Virus record (IMG/VR): IMGVR_UViG_2671180460_000004
Coordinates: 1-6,775 of that record
Length of the DNA: 6,775 nucleotides
Direction: 5' to 3' (one strand)
DNA from: a virus
Taxonomy: Duplodnaviria; Heunggongvirae; Uroviricota; Caudoviricetes
Positions within the stretch are counted from its first letter, which is position 1, and the number at the start of each line of letters is the position of its first letter. This document shows positions 1 to 6,775 of this stretch, piece after piece. Position numbers and translations under genes: made by a program. The notes under the pieces are model-generated. The model made no database searches, was not told the origin of the DNA, and saw only the letters and a program-made list of their open reading frames with translations.

Positions 1-95
1 ACTGGCTGGTCGTCCTGATTAACCTGGTGTTCTGCGTGCTGGTGATACGAGCACGCGGGAACGTATCAAAAATCCTTGTATTACGAAGGCGCTGA
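1..95 (+). CDS. Probable holin, C-terminal fragment (5' end lies outside the window)
   Basis: Frame 3 is open from the window start to TGA at 93-95 and reads WLVVLINLVFCVLVIRARGNVSKILVLRRR: a hydrophobic segment followed by a basic tail, as in holin C-termini. The stop lies 1 nt before the endolysin ATG at 97. Only about 30 aa are visible and no homology was recognised. Confidence 0.35.
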   Translation, partial: WLVVLINLVFCVLVIRARGNVSKILVLRRR

Positions 96-96
96 T

Positions 97-642
97 ATGA
101 AGTCGAAAGATGAAATTTTTGACGAAATTCTGGGAAAAGAGGGCGGTTACGTCAATCACCCGGATGATAAAGGTGGTCCGACTAAATGGGGCATCACTGA
201 AAAAGTTGCCCGTGCACACGGTTATCAGGGCGATATGCGTGACCTGACGCGTGGGCAGGCGCTGGAAATACTCGAGGCGGACTACTGGTACGGACCACGA
301 TTCGACCAGGTTGAGGACCTGTCTCCTGATATTGCCGCAGAGTTGTGCGATACGGGCGTGAACATGGGGCCAACTGTGGCGTCCAGAATGCTTCAGCGCT
401 GGCTGAACGTTTTCAACCTGCGCGGGAAACTCTATCCGGATATGGATGCTGATGGACGCATCGGGCCGCGTACTCTTAATGCATTACGGGCATATCTGAA
501 AAATCGCAGCAGGGATGGTGAACTGGTACTGGTGAAAGCCCTGAACTGTACGCAGGGCGAGCGTTATCTGGAGCTGGCAGAGAAACGCGAGGCCAATGAG
601 TCGTTTGTCTATGGCTGGATGAAAGAGCGCGTGGTGGTTTAA
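97..642 (+). CDS. Endolysin, glycoside hydrolase family 108 type with C-terminal peptidoglycan-binding region (181 aa)
   Basis: ATG at 97 is preceded by GAAGG at 84-88; stop TAA at 640-642. The N-terminus MKSKDEIFDEILGKEGGYVNHPDDKGGPTKWGIT matches the GH108 motif (EGGY...D...KGG.T.WGI) as I recall it. The track ORF 76..642 begins at an upstream TTG, which I consider less likely. No signal peptide or SAR-like N-terminus is visible. Confidence 0.85.
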   Translation: MKSKDEIFDEILGKEGGYVNHPDDKGGPTKWGITEKVARAHGYQGDMRDLTRGQALEILEADYWYGPRFDQVEDLSPDIAAELCDTGVNMGPTVASRMLQRWLNVFNLRGKLYPDMDADGRIGPRTLNALRAYLKNRSRDGELVLVKALNCTQGERYLELAEKREANESFVYGWMKERVVV

Positions 643-740
643 AAACTGACACTGAAGTGCTGAACACCCTCAACTCATGCAGGCTCTTTTCTGGGGCTAC
701 GATGAGCGAAAGTAAGGGGCATAGCATCAGATAGCAAAAA

Positions 741-777
741 CCCCGGCTGCGGTAACAGTCCGGGGTTTTCTGTTTCT
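741..777 (+). terminator. Rho-independent terminator
   Basis: GC-rich hairpin CCCCGGCTG / CAGTCCGGGG (741-765, one bulged T) followed by TTTTCTGTTTCT (766-777). An A-run at 736-740 precedes it, so it could act in both directions. Confidence 0.6.
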
Positions 778-802
778 GGCCCTGGGTAAGGCAAAGGAGA
801 AC

Positions 803-985
803 ATGAGGAAGTATAAACTAATTCTGTTGAGGTTGACTATGAAAAACGGCCTTGAATTAAAAGCGCCTGTAACTGATGACATCAGCAGAGCGGTGGCTTT
901 TGCCATTAAGTGGGTGGCTGTCGGTATCGCTGTGTCTCCGATTCTGTATGGGATGGCAAAATTGATCATTGCTGTGAAATCGTAA
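803..985 (+). CDS. Hypothetical small membrane protein (60 aa; alternative start ATG 839 gives 48 aa)
   Basis: AAGGAG at 795-800 is only 2 nt from ATG 803; the alternative ATG 839 has GAGG 9 nt upstream. The C-terminal half FAIKWVAVGIAVSPILYGMAKLIIAV is hydrophobic and transmembrane-like. No recognisable homology. Confidence 0.3.
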   Translation: MRKYKLILLRLTMKNGLELKAPVTDDISRAVAFAIKWVAVGIAVSPILYGMAKLIIAVKS

Positions 986-1002
986 GTGGGGCAGGGGTAA
1001 AT

Positions 1003-1137
1003 ATGTCAGATAGCATTATAAAACTGGCGCGAATTCTCTGTGTGGTTGTTGGCCTTTCATTTTCAGCAATGTTGGTTGCCATTTTCATTTCCACCGCCTG
1101 GCGAGTATTGAGCTTATCCGGATTGATTGGTGGATAG
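1003..1137 (+). CDS. Hypothetical small transmembrane protein (44 aa)
   Basis: ATG 1003 with AGGGG 6 nt upstream; stop TAG 1135-1137. Product MSDSIIKLARILCVVVGLSFSAMLVAIFISTAWRVLSLSGLIGG has one clear hydrophobic helix. The track ORF 910..1137 starts further upstream without a good RBS. Confidence 0.4.
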   Translation: MSDSIIKLARILCVVVGLSFSAMLVAIFISTAWRVLSLSGLIGG

Positions 1138-1141
1138 CGAG

Positions 1142-1324
1142 ATGAAGCGAAAACACTGGACACACAGAATGCCGCGAACGGCAGCGAAATGGGCACTGGT
1201 AGCGATACTGGTGCCTTTTTTATTGGTGGGATGCGTCAGCCTGGATAAGGCGCGTCAGTTTTTCGATACAGCTTCTCAGGTCTGTGAAATTGTCGACGGT
1301 GTCCGGCAGTGCATGCAGAACTGA
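1142..1324 (+). CDS. Predicted small lipoprotein (60 aa precursor, about 30 aa mature, Cys-containing)
   Basis: ATG 1142 with GGTGGA 7 nt upstream; it overlaps the preceding ORF in a different frame. N-terminus MKRKHWTHRMPRTAAKWALVAILVPFLLVGC has a basic n-region, a hydrophobic core and a lipobox-like LVGC. The mature part CVSLDKARQFFDTASQVCEIVDGVRQCMQN has V at +2 and two further cysteines. Confidence 0.45.
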   Translation: MKRKHWTHRMPRTAAKWALVAILVPFLLVGCVSLDKARQFFDTASQVCEIVDGVRQCMQN

Positions 1325-1486
1325 TCGCCTGTAAGAGCAGAATATTTTGCTGAAAAATGAAGGATGCGCCAGCGTCCGGAAAGCATGAAATTCTGCTGCG
1401 TGTACCAATTTTATCTTATTCATTCTAAATCTTGCCGAATCAAGCAACTGCCCGGGCGGCAAGGGGTATTTTTATCCGGAGGGGAT

Positions 1487-1711
1487 ATGAAGAGATTACT
1501 GGTAACCGTAAAGCCCTTTAACGGAACGATTCCATTCAGGGTTTTGCAGCGTGGACGTGTTCTGGTTAAGGATATCTTCAGTGGTAAATGCACGGAATGT
1601 TATTCCCGGACATATGAAGTGGATGCCACGGATGAAGAAATTTCTGTTGAATGTGATCTGAACGCGAATATGGCGGGGATTGTAACAGCCACGTTGTTGC
1701 CGGTTTCATGA
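1487..1711 (+). CDS. Hypothetical protein (74 aa) with a CxxC motif
   Basis: ATG 1487 with GGAGG 4 nt upstream; stop TGA 1709-1711. Product MKRLLVTVKPFNGTIPFRVLQRGRVLVKDIFSGKCTECYSRTYEVDATDEEISVECDLNANMAGIVTATLLPVS. The antisense ORF 1578..1925 has implausible composition. Confidence 0.45.
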   Translation: MKRLLVTVKPFNGTIPFRVLQRGRVLVKDIFSGKCTECYSRTYEVDATDEEISVECDLNANMAGIVTATLLPVS

Positions 1712-1751
1712 ATGACATAGAATGTCTCTGGGTACCCAAAAGGAGAACACT

Positions 1752-1967
1752 ATGTTTGTAGAAAATAACCTGAAGGCTGATCCTGATAATCAGGGATGGG
1801 TTCTGGGTTGGGCTGTAGTACGTGACAAACCGTGGCATCTGGTCGGTATTTATGCGACGGAGGATGGCGCAAAGTCTAAACGCTCTGAATTGAATGGGGA
1901 GTATGAAGTTCGTTATGGTTCCCATCGTTTAGGTAGTGATGATTTTATGTCTGTCGGACTTAGCTAA
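1752..1967 (+). CDS. Hypothetical protein (71 aa)
   Basis: Strong RBS AGGAG at 1741-1745, 6 nt before ATG 1752; stop TAA 1965-1967; followed by the terminator at 1989-2016. Product MFVENNLKADPDNQGWVLGWAVVRDKPWHLVGIYATEDGAKSKRSELNGEYEVRYGSHRLGSDDFMSVGLS, Trp/Gly-rich and mildly acidic. Confidence 0.6.
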   Translation: MFVENNLKADPDNQGWVLGWAVVRDKPWHLVGIYATEDGAKSKRSELNGEYEVRYGSHRLGSDDFMSVGLS

Positions 1968-1988
1968 CTGGCTGTGATGCCTGTTTGT

Positions 1989-2016
1989 AGCCCCGCAAAT
2001 GCGGGGCTTTTTATAT
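1989..2016 (+). terminator. Rho-independent terminator
   Basis: Near-perfect hairpin AGCCCCGCA-aa-TGCGGGGCT (1989-2009) followed by TTTTTAT. Confidence 0.65.
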
Positions 2017-2028
2017 TTGGAGACGATA

Positions 2029-2325
2029 ATGAAAAAAACAGAAAATAAACCGGTTGCAATTGGTGCCGCTGTTGTTCCGTTTAAGTTTGAGTTGTCTCAA
2101 CTGGTGGAGATGCGCATCAGTGATGAATGGGGTGAGGTTAAAGCCCGCGCGCAGTATGCGGATGGCGAAAATCAGTACTTACTCTACTACAAGGCTGCTG
2201 ATGGTCGCGCCACAACGGAGTGGTTTGGTGAGTCAATGCTGGAAGCAACAGAAGATGATCGCCATCCGGGCTGTCCGGTATTTGCCGGTATGAAATTACC
2301 GGAAGGCGCGGTCGTTACTGAGTAA
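2029..2325 (+). CDS. Hypothetical acidic protein (98 aa)
   Basis: GGAG at 2019-2022, 6 nt before ATG 2029; stop TAA 2323-2325. Product MKKTENKPVAIGAAVVPFKFELSQLVEMRISDEWGEVKARAQYADGENQYLLYYKAADGRATTEWFGESMLEATEDDRHPGCPVFAGMKLPEGAVVTE has about 17 acidic and 11 basic residues. The overlapping out-of-frame track ORF 2054..2293 is rejected. Confidence 0.6.
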   Translation: MKKTENKPVAIGAAVVPFKFELSQLVEMRISDEWGEVKARAQYADGENQYLLYYKAADGRATTEWFGESMLEATEDDRHPGCPVFAGMKLPEGAVVTE

Positions 2326-2539
2326 CAGCAGGCATTATCGCAGCCCTTCACTGAGGGGCCGCGATAATGTGAGGAATAAAAAACCGGTCACAGGGAGCAG
2401 CTACACAGAACCGGCTGGCGAAGACTGCCAATATCACCCGGGCATCGGTACAACATACTTATGACAATAGACGGTATTGATGTAAATGCAATATCATATC
2501 AGAAAATAATAATTTATTGTATGAAAAGAATATTGAGAT

Positions 2540-2570
2540 AAAAATGCCAACCCATTATCTATGGGCTGGC
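2540..2570 (-). terminator. Rho-independent terminator for the minus-strand gene 2597..2797
   Basis: On the minus strand: hairpin GCCAGCCCAU-agaua-AUGGGUUGGC (2570-2546; 10-bp stem with one G-U pair) followed by AUUUUUAU. It sits 26 nt beyond the gene's stop. Confidence 0.5.
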
Positions 2571-2596
2571 ATAATGATTAGTCCGAAAGTGAATAT

Positions 2597-2797
2597 TTAA
2601 AGAAACTGATTAAATTCCTTAACTGAATCATGCAGTTCGTATTCTTTCAGGTTTTTGATAATCGCTTCCCTTCGCTCTGGTGGTAGTTGAGCCATGAGGA
2701 AACCGACGACACATTTTAGCTGCCCAATTTCTTTATTGAGATCATGAATGTTTTTGGCATTACATTCCATCTGTAATCTGAAATTCTTCTTAATCAT
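2597..2797 (-). CDS. Hypothetical small protein (66 aa) encoded antisense to the late operon, in an AT-rich island
   Basis: Minus-strand ORF with ATG at 2797-2795, preceded on the minus strand by AAGGGA about 7 nt upstream. Product MIKKNFRLQMECNAKNIHDLNKEIGQLKCVVGFLMAQLPPERREAIIKNLKEYELHDSVKEFNQFL is Lys/Glu-rich and probably helical. Its own terminator lies downstream at 2540-2570. No homology recognised. Confidence 0.5.
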   Translation of the reverse strand: MIKKNFRLQMECNAKNIHDLNKEIGQLKCVVGFLMAQLPPERREAIIKNLKEYELHDSVKEFNQFL

Positions 2798-2880
2798 ATT
2801 TATTCCCTTATGATGATGTGGAAGAGGTATTTATCCTGGAGAGTGGCAGTAATGGCCACTGACCGAGCAGGTATTTTAAC

Positions 2881-2946
2881 CAGATTCATGATTAATGAAA
2901 ATATTGATAATTGATCAGATTCATATGAAATTAATAATGATAATTG
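2881..2946. repeat. Imperfect tandem direct repeat (two units of about 33-35 bp) in AT-rich DNA upstream of cosN
   Basis: Unit 1 (2881-2915) is CAGATTCATgattaatgaaaataTTGATAATTGat and unit 2 (2916-2946) is CAGATTCATatgaaattaataaTGATAATTGct. Both begin with CAGATTCAT and end with TGATAATTG. Confidence 0.4.
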
Positions 2947-2949
2947 CTC

Positions 2950-3160
2950 TCATTTGTGCGGGTCCTTCCGGTGGGGTGGCCTGCCACGGGGCGGCAGCGG
3001 CGCGGATTTTCGCTATTTATGAAAATTTTTCGGGAAAAAGCGTGTCGGTACTTCTCGTGTATAACTCATTGTTTTTTCATCAATCACATCCGTAAAAGGT
3101 CCGACATGAAAGTGCCCGAAAAAGACGTTTTTGAGCACTTCCATGTCGGACCCTGCATTT
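2950..3160 (+). other. cos: cos site: cosQ-like segment, cosN (predicted 12-nt cohesive end at 2989-3000) and cosB with three R-like elements
   Basis: 2960-3035 (GGGTCCTTCCGGTGG...CCACG GGGCGGCAGCGG CGCGGATTTTCGCTATTTATGAAAATTTTTCGG) aligns with the lambda cos junction as recalled from memory (GGGTCCTTTCCGGTG...TTACG | GGGCGGCGACCT CGCGGGTTTTCGCTATTTATGAAAATTTTCCGG). cosB candidates: an R3-like GTGTCGGTAC at 3042-3051 and a perfect 11-bp inverted repeat GGTCCGACATG (3098-3108) / CATGTCGGACC (3142-3152), laid out like lambda R3/R2/R1. The Nu1-like gene starts immediately downstream. Confidence 0.75.
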
Positions 3161-3176
3161 GATATGGAAATGTTTT

Positions 3177-3725
3177 ATGAAGGTTAATAAAAAGAAGCTC
3201 GCGGAAATTTTCAACGTGGATCCACGAACGATTGAACGCTGGCAGTCTCAGGGGCTCTCTTGTGTCTCTGGTGGTAGTAAGGGGGTTGAATCTGTATTTG
3301 ATACCGCCATGGCAATTCAGTGGTATGCGCAACGCGAAGCCGATATTGAAAACGAAAAACTCCGCAAAGAGACCGAGGATTTGCGTGCGGCTGCGGAATC
3401 AGATTTACAACCCGGCACCATTGACTATGAACGCTACCGACTCACAAAAGCACAGGCTGATGCACAGGAACTGAAAAATGCCCGCGAAGAAGGGCTGGTA
3501 CTGGAAACGGAATTGTTTACCTTCATTCTGCAACGTGTGGCACAGGAGATTTCGGGGATACTTGTACGTGTGTCGCTGACATTACAGCGTAAATATCCGG
3601 ATATTTCACCGTCACACCTTGATGTGGTGAAAACTGAAATCGCAAAAGCCTCCAACGTTGCAGCTAAAGCTGGTGAGAACGTAGGCGGGTGGATTGATGA
3701 TTTCAGACGCACAGAAGGCAGCTAA
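3177..3725 (+). CDS. nu1: Terminase small subunit (lambda Nu1 homolog, 182 aa)
   Basis: [41 protein letters not shown]... closely parallels lambda Nu1 MEVNKKQLADIFGASIRTIQNWQEQGMPVLRGGGKGNEVLY..., and later stretches match too ([32 protein letters not shown]). ATG 3177 is chosen by this alignment; the track ORF starts at TTG 3159. Stop TAA 3723-3725. Confidence 0.9.
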
Positions 3726-5613
3726 TGCAGCCGGTGCGATAGCAACAGGGCTTGTATCTCTCAATATTCCGGTACCACTGACGACAGTTCAGTGGGCTGA
3801 TCAGCATTATTATCTGCCAAAAGAGTCTTCATATACTCCCGGGCAATGGGAAACACTGCCGTTTCAGGTTGCCATCATGAACAGCATGGGGAATGACCGG
3901 ATCCGCACCGTTAATCTGATTAAATCGGCGCGTGTTGGTTACACCAAAATGCTGTTGGGGGTGGAGGCTTATTTTATTGAACACAAATCCCGTAACAGCC
4001 TGCTTTTTCAGCCGACAGATTCTGCGGCAGAAGATTTTATGAAATCCCATGTCGAACCAACGATAAGAGACGTTCCTGTATTACTGGAGCTGGCTCCGTG
4101 GTTTGGCAGAAAACATCGGGACAACACGCTTACCCTGAAACGTTTCTCCTCCGGTGTGGGATTCTGGTGTCTGGGCGGAGCTGCTGCCAAAAACTACCGT
4201 GAAAAATCTGTGGATGTGGTCTGCTATGACGAACTCTCCTCGTTTGAACCGGATGTGGAAAAAGAAGGTTCACCAACCCTGCTTGGCGATAAGCGTATCG
4301 AAGGTTCGGTATGGCCTAAATCCATACGCGGCTCAACGCCCAAAATTAAAGGTTTTTGCCAGATTGAAAAAGCCGCGAACGAATCTGCACATTTTATGCG
4401 GTTTTATGTGCCATGCCCTCATTGTGGTGAAGCCCAGTATCTGAAGTTTGGCGATGATGCGACAACCTTTGGCCTGAAATGGGAGAAGGGCAAGCCGGAG
4501 ACGGTGTATTACCTGTGTGAACATAATGGCTGCGTGATCCGTCAGTCGGAACTTGACCAGACCGACGGGCGGTGGATTTGTGACAATACCGGGATGTGGA
4601 CGCGTGACGGTCTGACATTTTACAGCGCCGGTGATGAGGAAATCCCGCCACCGCGCTCAATCTCGTACCACATCTGGACGGCATACAGCCCGTTCACCAC
4701 CTGGGTACAGATTGTTTATGACTGGCTTGATGCACTGAAGGATCCGAATGGCGTCAAGACGTTCATTAACACCACGCTGGGGGAGCCTTATGAAGAGGCT
4801 GTGGCAGAAAAACTGAGCTTTGAGTTGTTGCTGGAAAAAGTCTGCCACTATGATGCGCAGGTTCCCCTGCGGGTGGTTTACCTGACCGCAGGGATCGACT
4901 CTCAGAAAAACCGTTATGAGATTTATGTCTGGGGCTGGGCTCCTGGCGAAGAAGCTTTTCTGATTGACAAGCAGATCATCATGGGGAGACCGGAAGATGA
5001 GGACACCCTTAAACGCGTTGATGCCGTGATCCGGAAAAAATACCGTCATGCAGATGGCACTGAAATTTCCATTTCCCGCGTCTGCTGGGATACCGGTGGT
5101 ATTGACCAGGACATTGTGTATCAGCGATCCAGAAAACACGGTACTTTTTTTGTGCTCCCCATCAAAGGGGCGTCGGTGTACGGCAAGCCGGTAATCACCA
5201 TGCCAAAAAAGCGAAACCAGCGTGGGGTGTTTTTGTGTGAGGTGGGTTCCGATACCGTCAAGGAAATGCTGTATGCGCGTTTTGCACTGCCGGTGGTATC
5301 TGCCAGTGAAGTCGCACCGTATACCTTCCGTTTTCCGGATAACCCGGACATTTTTTCTGATGTTGAAGCTAAACAACTCGTGGCAGAAGAGCTGGTTGAA
5401 AAAGTTGTGAACGGGCGGGTGAAACTCCAGTGGGATGCCAGAAAACGGCGTAATGAAGCCCTGGACTGTCTGGTGTATGCCTATGCAGCGCTGCGCATTT
5501 CCGTTCAGCGGTGGCAACTGGATCTGGATGCACTGGCCCGCGCCAGAAGAGATGAACAGGACGACGATGAAATGACTATTGAAGAAATCGCGGCTGCTCT
5601 GAGTGGAGGATAA
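3697..5613 (+). CDS. A: Terminase large subunit (lambda gpA homolog, 638 aa)
   Basis: Similar to lambda gpA along its whole length, e.g. [25 protein letters not shown], the atypical Walker A-like KSARVGYT at residues 76-83 (nt 3922-3945) and the C-terminal [23 protein letters not shown] 3697 follows the TTG at 3694 used by the track. The gene overlaps the Nu1 3' end by 29 nt in another frame, as lambda Nu1/A do. Stop TAA 5611-5613. Confidence 0.95.
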
Positions 5614-5616
5614 GTG

Positions 5617-5826
5617 ATGATTTATACGCATGAAATGCTATGCGATGCCCGCCGGGCGTTACATGAACTGATGATCGGACGTGCTGTGGTTTCCGTCAGC
5701 AAGGACGGGCGTCAGGTTCAGTATTCGCGGGCGACAATTGGTGAACTGCGTCAGTATATTGAAGAGCTGGAAAGTGCGCTGGGTGTATCCGGACGGCGTC
5801 GTGGCCCGGCAGGAGTGTGGCTGTGA
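5617..5826 (+). CDS. W: Head-tail joining / head completion protein (lambda gpW homolog, 69 aa)
   Basis: GGAGGA at 5605-5610, 6 nt before ATG 5617. Product MIYTHEMLCDARRALHELMIGRAVVSVSKDGRQVQYSRATIGELRQYIEELESALGVSGRRRGPAGVWL aligns with lambda gpW (...[26 protein letters not shown]...YIAELE...RRRGPAGFYV). Stop TGA 5824-5826. Confidence 0.85.
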   Translation: MIYTHEMLCDARRALHELMIGRAVVSVSKDGRQVQYSRATIGELRQYIEELESALGVSGRRRGPAGVWL

Positions 5827-6775
5827 ACGGTGAACTGGTGGATATTCATGGGCAGCCTTTACGGCAAAGCATGGGATATTCTGGTGGTGGTTCCGGGTTC
5901 GGTGGGCAAATGGCAGAATGGCTGCCTGCACCGGAAAGTGCCGACGTGGCGCTCTTACCTTCCATTCATCTGGGTAACGCCCGCGCGGATGATCTGGTCC
6001 GTAACAACGGTATTGCATCGAATGCAGTGGAAATTCATAAGGATCATATTGTCGGGCACATGTTTCGTCTGAGTTACCGTCCCAACTGGCGCTGGCTGGG
6101 GATGTCGGAAGCAGATTCACATGCTTTTATTGAAGATGTTGAGGCGGCGTGGATGGAATACTGCGATCCGGTGTTTGGTACGATGGATGTGGAAGGGCGT
6201 CGTTCGTTTACCGAATTCATTCGTGAAGGGGTGGGTGTCCATACTTTTAATGGAGAAATTTTTGTCCAGCCTGTATGGGATGCGGAATCCACGTCATTAT
6301 TCCGGACGAAATTCAAAACCATCAGCCCGAAGCGTGTCAGTACACCCGGTTATGGTACCGGCGATCGTTTTATGCGTGCCGGGGTGGAAATAAACCGACA
6401 CGGAAAAGCGCTGGCCTACCATGTTCAGGATGATGACTGGCCCGGCTACGGTGTCAGTAAATGGACACGAATTACGGCAACACTGCCTTCCGGACGACCG
6501 GGAATGATCCATGTGTTTCAGCCACAGGAAGACGGGCAGACCCGCGGGGCCAACCAGTTTTATTCTGTAATGGAGCGTCTCAAGATGCTCGACACACTGC
6601 AGGCCACGCAACTGCAGTCGGCGGTGGTTCGCGCCATGTATGCCGCCACGATTGAATCCACACTGGATTCGGAAAAAGCGTTTGAATATATCGCCGGGGT
6701 GGGAGATGGAGGTAAAAATCCCCTGAACACCATCATGAAAGGCTACGCGCGTTATTACGCCACCAATACGGTAAA
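5823..6775 (+). CDS. B: Portal protein (lambda gpB homolog), 5' partial; the reading frame continues past the window end
   Basis: Frame 3 is open from 5763 to the window end, which is why the supplied track (complete ORFs only) does not list it. The translation ...GYSGGGSGFGGQ...LPSIHLGNARADDLVRNNGIASNAVEIHKDHIVG...FIREGV...FNGEIFVQ...IHVFQPQEDGQTRGANQFYSVMERLKMLDTLQATQLQSAVVRAMYAATIES closely matches lambda gpB. The proposed start is GTG 5823, with AGGAG at 5811-5815 seven nt upstream, overlapping the gpW stop (GTGA). Confidence 0.9.
   Translation, partial: MNGELVDIHGQPLRQSMGYSGGGSGFGGQMAEWLPAPESADVALLPSIHLGNARADDLVRNNGIASNAVEIHKDHIVGHMFRLSYRPNWRWLGMSEADSHAFIEDVEAAWMEYCDPVFGTMDVEGRRSFTEFIREGVGVHTFNGEIFVQPVWDAESTSLFRTKFKTISPKRVSTPGYGTGDRFMRAGVEINRHGKALAYHVQDDDWPGYGVSKWTRITATLPSGRPGMIHVFQPQEDGQTRGANQFYSVMERLKMLDTLQATQLQSAVVRAMYAATIESTLDSEKAFEYIAGVGDGGKNPLNTIMKGYARYYATNTV

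Follow-up and report, generated by a model that had tools for sequence, protein, structure and literature searches.

Three small genes between the lysis genes and cos

We analysed a 6.8-kb stretch of viral DNA (IMG/VR record IMGVR_UViG_2671180460_000004, positions 1 to 6,775; hereafter the window). The window covers the right end of a lambdoid Escherichia coli prophage, where late genes meet packaging genes, and the latter are of the phage-21/lambda type. Our subject is three small open reading frames (ORFs), ORF1, ORF2 and ORF3. An earlier, sequence-only reading had placed them between the lysis genes and cos, and the endolysin gene at 97–642 and cos at 2989 bear this out, which puts them at the far right of the virion chromosome. 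The features on which the argument turns are the following.

1487–1711, + strand: ORF1, 74 aa; Shine–Dalgarno (SD) sequence GGAGGGG; phrog_2571
1752–1967, + strand: ORF2, 71 aa; SD AAGGAG; phrog_4280
1989–2016, + strand: intrinsic terminator closing the ORF1–ORF2 cassette (stem scan and folding energy)
2029–2325, + strand: ORF3, 98 aa, homologue of phiP27 L33; SD GGAG; phrog_1935

The sequence-only reading had the coordinates right, including an SD for each ORF. Longer upstream starts are also open (1364, 1722 and 1999), but the starts chosen here are those with an SD, and they agree with the RefSeq annotation of the closest relative of the window, a prophage of E. coli C311 (L001). Poor conservation among relatives, which had been named as a sign that the ORFs are not genes, was not seen. 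Median pairwise dN/dS, calculated by the Nei–Gojobori method on homologous coding sequences taken from the fetched loci, was 0.109 for ORF1, 0.121 for ORF2 and 0.142 for ORF3, with control values of 0.080 for gpW and 0.176 for Nu1 at the same loci. Values of 0.11–0.14, near those of gpW and Nu1, mark ORF1–ORF3 as expressed and selected protein-coding genes, and it is nearly certain that they are real and under purifying selection. Their G+C content (44–54%) is like that of their neighbours and not atypical.

The strong terminator reported between ORF2 and ORF3 also held up. It has an 8-bp stem with 7 GC pairs at 1989–2008, followed by a T-run, and its folding energy (ΔG −17.1 kcal/mol, z −3.65) was better than that of all 200 shuffles. 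Rather than dividing two operons of one system, it closes a mobile ORF1–ORF2 cassette on the 3′ side. A 1-kb query across ORF1–ORF3 matched 345 records among complete E. coli genomes, only 24 of them with at least 80% coverage, and in a spread sample the matches stopped at the terminator (window about 2004–2019). Prophages with ORF3 only share window 1139–1395, which holds a small lipoprotein gene with its 3′ flank, and the sequence from 2013 onward; between these, 87 unrelated bp replace the 617 bp at 1396–2012. Prophage L003 shares exactly window 1469–2019, at 84% identity, and this block, which contains ORF1 with its SD, ORF2 and the terminator, lies there between Rz and Nu1 without ORF3. 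Together, the L003 block and the replacement in ORF3-only prophages define ORF1, ORF2 and the terminator as an exchangeable cassette (1469–2019) and ORF3 as a separate gene. In the window, the cassette is inserted between the lipoprotein gene and ORF3, and ORF3 is an older resident of the slot. The cassette starts only 18 bp 5′ of the ORF1 start codon; ORF1 and ORF2 are 40 bp apart, with separate SDs and no overlap. It shares two features with morons, namely presence/absence polymorphism between similar phages and a terminator of its own.

Co-occurrence was counted in IMG/VR loci, grouped by anchor gene and by identity to the window.

ORF3 as anchor, close relatives: 71 loci; lipoprotein gene upstream (within 900 bp) in 71, ORF2 upstream in 9
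ORF2 as anchor, at least 85% identity: 15 loci; ORF1 upstream in 14, ORF3 downstream in 13
ORF2 as anchor, 61–70% identity: 35 loci; an ORF1-like gene (29–52% identical) upstream in 32, ORF3 in 0
ORF2 as anchor, at most 60% identity: 29 loci; ORF1 upstream in 4 (absent in 25)
ORF1 as anchor, Stx type (60–70% identity): 56 loci; ORF2 downstream in 1 (absent in 55)

The sequence-only reading had suggested comparing synteny to see whether the three genes travel together, and they do not: ORF3 occurs without ORF1 and ORF2 in 62 of 71 loci, Stx-type ORF1 without ORF2 in 55 of 56, and distant ORF2 without ORF1 in 25 of 29. All combinations were seen (ORF1 alone, ORF1 with ORF2, ORF3 alone, all three, and ORF2 alone), and they adjoin four terminase types (Nu1/gpA, DUF1441, P27 with HNH, and P2 gpM). 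At locus L006, ORF1 is 92% identical to that of the window and ORF2 only 56%, with a mosaic joint between the two. Many close relatives with the same lysis and packaging genes lack ORF1–ORF3 altogether. On this comparative sequence evidence, ORF1–ORF3 are three separately exchangeable, non-essential accessory genes and not one system. A functional pairing of the lipoprotein with ORF3, suggested by their linkage in all 71 close relatives, was rejected. In Salmonella a gene that encodes no lipoprotein lies upstream instead, breaking the linkage, which therefore reflects common ancestry of a mosaic segment.

Three families and their relatives

The sequence-only reading had found no match to lambda structural or lysis proteins, and our searches went further in the same direction, placing ORF1–ORF3 in no curated family at all. 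They gave no Pfam match at E ≤ 0.1, no NCBIfam match and no PADLOC match; the same Pfam/NCBIfam search did recognise their neighbours (Glyco_hydro_108, Phage_Nu1). A sequence search of the PDB for the three proteins, with single sequences (phmmer) and with profiles, returned nothing below E 0.29, and a profile comparison of ORF1 with ORF3 revealed no homology. Each protein does fall into a PHROG: ORF1 into phrog_2571 (E 2.6e-28, residues 1–73), ORF2 into phrog_4280 (E 3.8e-41, residues 1–69 of 71) and ORF3 into phrog_1935 (E 2e-58, residues 1–98). ORF1 aligns to only positions 100–172 of the 291-position phrog_2571 profile. As all three PHROGs are of unknown function, these matches provide family placement and no functional explanation. 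All exact or source proteins are named 'hypothetical protein' in the databases, and a literature search under the accession numbers and PHROG identifiers turned up nothing relevant to ORF1–ORF3. The proteins contain no hydrophobic segments and no membrane or export signals. The exact proteins are common, with ORF1 on 827 contigs and ORF2 on at least 1000, from E. coli and Salmonella.

ORF1 is predicted from its sequence pattern to be a soluble, all-beta protein. The CxxC that drew attention in the sequence-only reading is present (C35/C38), but it varies within the family and is therefore no functional motif: C38 is replaced by L, S or G in relatives, and distant family members have no conserved Cys. 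Relatives that are 66–67% identical occur in Stx1a, Stx2a and Stx2c phages and in H-19B, where the gene lies immediately 3′ of Rz and ORF2 is missing. In the Stx2a phage Stx2_EH2201 (L177, 3001–3004), the start of the ORF1 homologue overlaps the Rz stop as ATGA, which suggests that in Stx phages ORF1 is translationally coupled to the last lysis gene. In other prophages, ORF1 begins 24 bp past Rz or overlaps the Rz stop codon.

ORF2 had been described as Trp/Gly-rich, which holds with qualification: there are 3 Trp and 8 Gly in 71 aa, and every Trp lies within conserved motifs. The model of ORF2 is a compact, soluble beta-beta-alpha-beta-beta fold with high confidence (pLDDT 94), and it has no significant structural match in the PDB or BFVD. 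Relatives extend to Pseudomonas, Serratia and Vreelandella/Halomonas. In a Pseudomonas genome, a genome of the Halomonas group and Pseudomonas phage YMC11/02/R656, ORF2 is a solitary gene, oriented against the tail genes and close to gpI-, gpJ- and gpK-like genes, and so cannot belong to the late transcript there. The Serratia relative is solitary and 3′ of the lysis genes. An ORF1–ORF2 pair follows a tail tube gene and a DUF6246 gene, and precedes an Arc/antirepressor region, in another group of viral contigs, and the cultured phage mEp237 carries an ORF1-like/ORF2-like pair as gp60/gp61, 3′ of Rz. A Pseudomonas-type viral contig (L077, 4001–4586) has a second, apparently frameshifted ORF2 copy in tandem 3′ of the intact one. 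The Pfam family DUF2188, which supplies the UniRef name of one ORF2 relative (P0161), was discarded as an assignment after none of 43 family members matched it, even at E ≤ 10. Scanned singly, these 43 relatives gave only weak matches to DUF7336 and DUF7457, in 5 members each.

ORF3 is 91% identical to L33 (NP_543085) of the Stx2e phage phiP27. Its core domain spans residues ~15–73 (about 58 aa) and often makes up a whole protein of about 60 aa. At E ≤ 1e-3 it is found in 653 cluster representatives, and no Pfam family includes it. The AF2 model of ORF3 is all-beta, but its confidence is low (pLDDT 52), and it yielded nothing informative in structure searches. A Tudor/SH3-like fold was considered and withdrawn, as the Tudor-knot match falls in a different, N-terminal domain of the relative P0201. 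The description of ORF3 as markedly acidic proved too strong: with 17 D+E against 11 K+R, it has a net charge of −6 over 98 aa and a pI of 4.78, which is mildly acidic.

ORF3 relatives adjoin unrelated terminase types (Nu1/gpA, DUF1441, P27-type with HNH, and Salmonella types), and in P2-like phages a 65-aa homologue sits between gpM (TerS) and gpL (head completion) with a 2-bp gap. This adjacency suggested a tie to packaging genes, which was undone by the neighbours of 75 diverse core-domain homologues on viral contigs. These neighbours include late genes (Rz, lysozyme, P2 capsid/TerS/gpL and gpA) as well as genes for RecT, RdgC, primase, methylase, KilA-N, DNA polymerase and integrase, so that there is no constant partner gene. 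The relative gp32 of Bcep176 lies amid small genes, away from annotated late genes.

The last ~60 bp of ORF3 and the hairpin that follows (window 2266–2387) are about 97% identical to sequence in many other prophages, in cdtI (orf60) and in phi458. The upstream part of the gene differs in those phages, which places a recombination joint inside the ORF3 C-terminus. Longer forms of 130–141 aa (P0002, P0006, P0030 and P0038) carry about 32 extra C-terminal residues (consensus ...ELQPGEVFVMTDIIDGKPQYSRIE.NGK...), and the 98-aa ORF3 of the window stops just short of this extension. In two independent sequences, an in-frame fusion links the ORF3 domain to the N-terminal portion of a tail-fibre assembly protein: in Yersinia phage vB_YpM_44 (L262, 3195–3908; Caudo_TAP, E 2.2e-5) and in P0186, with a weaker Caudo_TAP match. 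These fusions are either recombination relics or a hint of a domain that can stand in for the fibre-binding half of a Tfa chaperone.

Surrounding features of the window

The remaining features of the window are as follows.

97–642: GH108 endolysin with a peptidoglycan-binding domain (Pfam Glyco_hydro_108, E about 1e-26)
803–985: tiny ORF, 60 aa, with a C-terminal transmembrane (TM) segment (translation)
1003–1137: tiny ORF, 44 aa, TM protein (translation)
1142–1324, + strand: lipoprotein gene, 60 aa, lipobox LVGC (translation); phrog_7528; usual left neighbour of ORF3
2332–2370, + strand: very stable hairpin without a T-run, directly 3′ of ORF3 (ΔG −27.1 kcal/mol, z −5.4)
2400–2950: AT-rich island, 34–36% G+C (base composition)
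2597–2797, − strand: 66-aa ORF in the AT-rich island; phrog_6806, a PHROG of unknown function
2989–3164, + strand: cos (cosN/cosB), phage 21/lambda type (alignment to the phage 21 genome)
3177–3725, + strand: Nu1 (Phage_Nu1, E 3.3e-82)
3′ of Nu1: gpA, gpW and the start of the portal gene (ORF reading and annotation of the closest relative)

Window position 2989 pairs with base 1 of the phage 21 genome and with the cos segment annotated there, and the closest relative annotates the genes matching gpA, gpW and the portal gene as terminase large subunit, head–tail joining protein and portal protein. The lysis cassette is of the phiP27 type. No Rz/Rz1 spanin was recognisable in the window; homologues of the ORFs at 803–985 and 1003–1137 are also found 5′ of Rz in Stx-like phages, so these ORFs are not simply a spanin replacement. 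The mature part of the lipoprotein has 30 residues, 3 of them Cys. In the E. coli C311 prophage, an opposite-strand gene for an ais-like lipopolysaccharide (LPS) core heptose(II)-phosphate phosphatase (L001, 4959–5540) replaces the two TM ORFs between the endolysin and lipoprotein genes, and is a further cargo gene in the region. The hairpin at 2332–2370 has an inverted-repeat match at the same position in ORF3-only loci, and may serve to stabilise an RNA 3′ end, as a processing site or as a site of protein binding. A search of Rfam gave no family above threshold.

The minus-strand ORF at 2597–2797 has promoter-like sites at 2822–2793 and 2901–2873 and a minus-strand terminator at 2572–2544, and is a textbook moron just 5′ of cos. 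It occupies the place of taiEcA in phi80 and of a DUF3950 gene in Stx-like phages.

Conflict genes at the same position and a proposed function for ORF1–ORF3

The sequence-only reading had linked small genes of this kind to changes in host phenotype or to phage–phage and phage-defence conflict, and the slot between lysis genes and cos is indeed a published hotspot for defence and counter-defence genes (PMC11364771). In phi80, the slot between Rz and cos holds the opposite-strand gene taiEcA, whose expression in the lysogen keeps rival phages from assembling their tails (PMC11364771). The same slot holds atiEcA (orf64), which encodes a 76-aa late-operon protein that neutralises Tai during lytic growth of phi80; orf64 was placed in the Q-controlled late operon, with Q-dependence shown for another gene of that operon (PMC11364771). 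A comparable arrangement lies between the terminase genes of Pseudomonas phage JBD26, where an 83-aa protein, Tab, is encoded on the opposite strand with its own promoter and an 83-aa anti-Tab is encoded in the late operon (PMC10884400).

ORF1–ORF3 resemble AtiEcA in slot, strand and size (71–98 aa against 76 aa), but they show no sequence or profile similarity to it. Neither the window nor the related loci contain a Tai homologue, AtiEcA likewise matches nothing in the fetched loci, and the window has no homologue of Tab. With anti-Tab (JBD26 gp30) they share small size and a late-strand position by packaging genes, and the distant Pseudomonas ORF2, on the opposite strand within a tail operon, recalls the placement of Tab within the JBD26 late operon. 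However, there is no homology to either Tab or anti-Tab, ORF1 and ORF2 of E. coli both follow the direction of the late genes, and the two are not obligately linked. ORF3 also has the position of its homologue phiP27 L33, which likewise follows a small lipoprotein gene and precedes the packaging genes.

We suggest that ORF1–ORF3, placed in this slot by recombination, are probably transcribed in lytic growth, when RNA polymerase antiterminated by Q would start at the late promoter and read through internal terminators. Disregard of internal terminators by Q-modified polymerase is established lambda biology. All three genes run in the direction of the lysis and packaging genes, each with its own ribosome-binding site, and a consensus scan found no sigma-70-like promoter on the + strand at 1330–2030, although weak or non-sigma-70 sites could escape such a scan. 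The products would be small, soluble, single-domain proteins that bind another protein and serve neither in catalysis nor in building the virion; given their size, solubility, single-domain build and lack of catalytic signatures, they are most economically explained as binders or inhibitors. By analogy with AtiEcA of phi80 and anti-Tab of JBD26, they may neutralise, or exert, a prophage-encoded block. Taken whole, the proposal that ORF1–ORF3 are separate, non-essential late-operon cargo encoding small protein-binding modulators, acting most likely in phage–phage conflict, seems to us to have slightly less than an even chance of being right. The conflict role taken by itself is a 'perhaps' on the doubtful side. 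We nonetheless rank late-operon accessory proteins in phage–phage conflict first among the readings, with modest confidence.

Several results weigh against a conflict role. ORF1–ORF3 showed no homology to AtiEcA, TaiEcA, Tab or anti-Tab (hhalign probabilities below 1%); for AtiEcA and anti-Tab the probabilities were ≤ 0.4%, and blastp returned only short alignments at chance level (E ≥ 1.6). The PADLOC defence models, as noted, did not match ORF1–ORF3 either. No conserved opposite-strand partner was found beside ORF1–ORF3 in related loci. The minus-strand ORF at 2597–2797 was considered as a Tab/Tai-like partner of ORF3 and rejected, as ORF3 and the island were not found joined elsewhere: window 2029–3000 is not matched over 80% of its length in any of 5,426 complete E. 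coli genomes, and the ORF is absent from the neighbour patterns of 160 related loci. The loose pairing at L006 argues against ORF1 and ORF2 as a tightly co-evolving pair of binders, the ORF3 core domain has varied neighbours in diverse phages, early genes among them, and position in a hotspot fits almost any accessory function.

A different view of the same genes, which we consider unlikely, is that one or more of ORF1–ORF3, and ORF2 above all, are classical morons, expressed from a promoter of their own while the prophage is repressed and giving the lysogen a new phenotype such as a block to superinfection. Classical lambdoid morons include lambda bor and lom and HK97 gp15. ORF1 and ORF2 resemble these in being present or absent among relatives, in their insertion between late genes and in the 3′ intrinsic terminator, a moron hallmark; moreover, the opposite-strand ORF2 homologues in Pseudomonas, Halomonas and YMC11/02/R656 stand outside the late transcript, and in some phages the pair adjoins an Arc/Ant immunity-like region. 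In E. coli, however, ORF1–ORF3 are on the late-operon strand with no promoter-like site found upstream, and the 18-bp lead of the cassette, together with the tight placement of ORF1 elsewhere (24 bp after Rz or overlapping its stop), leaves no room for a promoter outside coding sequence. Base composition is typical, membrane and export signals are lacking, and PADLOC has no match. Somewhat less probable again is a role as auxiliary factors for the late functions of the phage itself, with ORF1 as a lysis accessory and ORF3 as a packaging or head-completion accessory. The Stx-type ORF1 directly 3′ of Rz, with the ATGA overlap in L177 and ORF2 absent from 55 of 56 loci, is consistent with the former, and the ORF3 relatives by small-terminase genes of four unrelated types, including the P2-like homologue between gpM and gpL, with the latter. 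Yet many close relatives with the same lysis and packaging genes do without ORF1–ORF3, as do lambda and phage 21-type packaging functions, and the 75 ORF3 core-domain contigs mix late and non-late neighbours with no fixed partner, with Bcep176 gp32 distant from any annotated late gene.

The two remaining alternatives are both very improbable. The sequence-only reading had raised the idea that ORF3 is an acidic DNA mimic or another anti-restriction or anti-defence protein, which would suit a small, soluble, net-negative protein encoded near the right cos end of virion DNA. This idea found no support: a net charge of only −6 (pI 4.78) falls short of the strong carboxylate density of the Ocr/ArdA type, the low-confidence all-beta model offers no help, and ORF3 is unlike any solved anti-restriction protein or PADLOC model. 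Its low charge and late timing bring a DNA mimic close to excluded. ORF1 and ORF2 could also be a two-gene toxin–antitoxin or abortive-infection module, being a small co-oriented pair kept in 32 of 35 loci even where ORF1 identity is 29–52%. Against this, co-occurrence is not obligate and each gene is widespread without the other, a freedom that brings a toxin–antitoxin pair close to excluded; the 40-bp gap with separate SDs and no overlap, the mosaic joint of L006, the lack of a toxin or antitoxin match in Pfam, NCBIfam or PADLOC and the lack of a significant fold match of ORF2 to known toxins point the same way.

Within the phage–phage conflict reading, a more specific and improbable version is that ORF2 is a new single-protein anti-phage or assembly-blocking factor and ORF1 its late antidote, an arrangement like Tab/anti-Tab or Tai/Ati built from unrelated folds. 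It would account for a pair that is kept although ORF1 identity falls to 29–52%, yet whose members are each also found solitary. If true, the solitary opposite-strand ORF2 genes in Pseudomonas tail operons would be defences that need no self-protection, and the solitary ORF1 genes that follow Rz in Stx phages would serve as orphan counter-defences, allowing growth on ORF2 lysogens.

The families were already catalogued as PHROGs, ORF3 was in GenBank as phiP27 L33, and the slot was a recognised hotspot for recombination and cargo. New here are the division of the three genes into a two-gene cassette and a separate gene, and the taxonomic and positional range mapped for each; the CxxC and DNA-mimic ideas are set aside, and the three families are linked to a locus of demonstrated defence and counter-defence. 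ORF1–ORF3 are otherwise typical of the vast pool of small phage 'hypothetical proteins' and will not surprise phage biologists. Common as the families are, no function or Pfam entry is recorded for any of them, and the ORF2 fold, predicted with confidence, has no significant match in the PDB or BFVD. Lying in a slot proven for defence and counter-defence genes, ORF1–ORF3 are reasonable and cheap candidates for plating and interaction screens.

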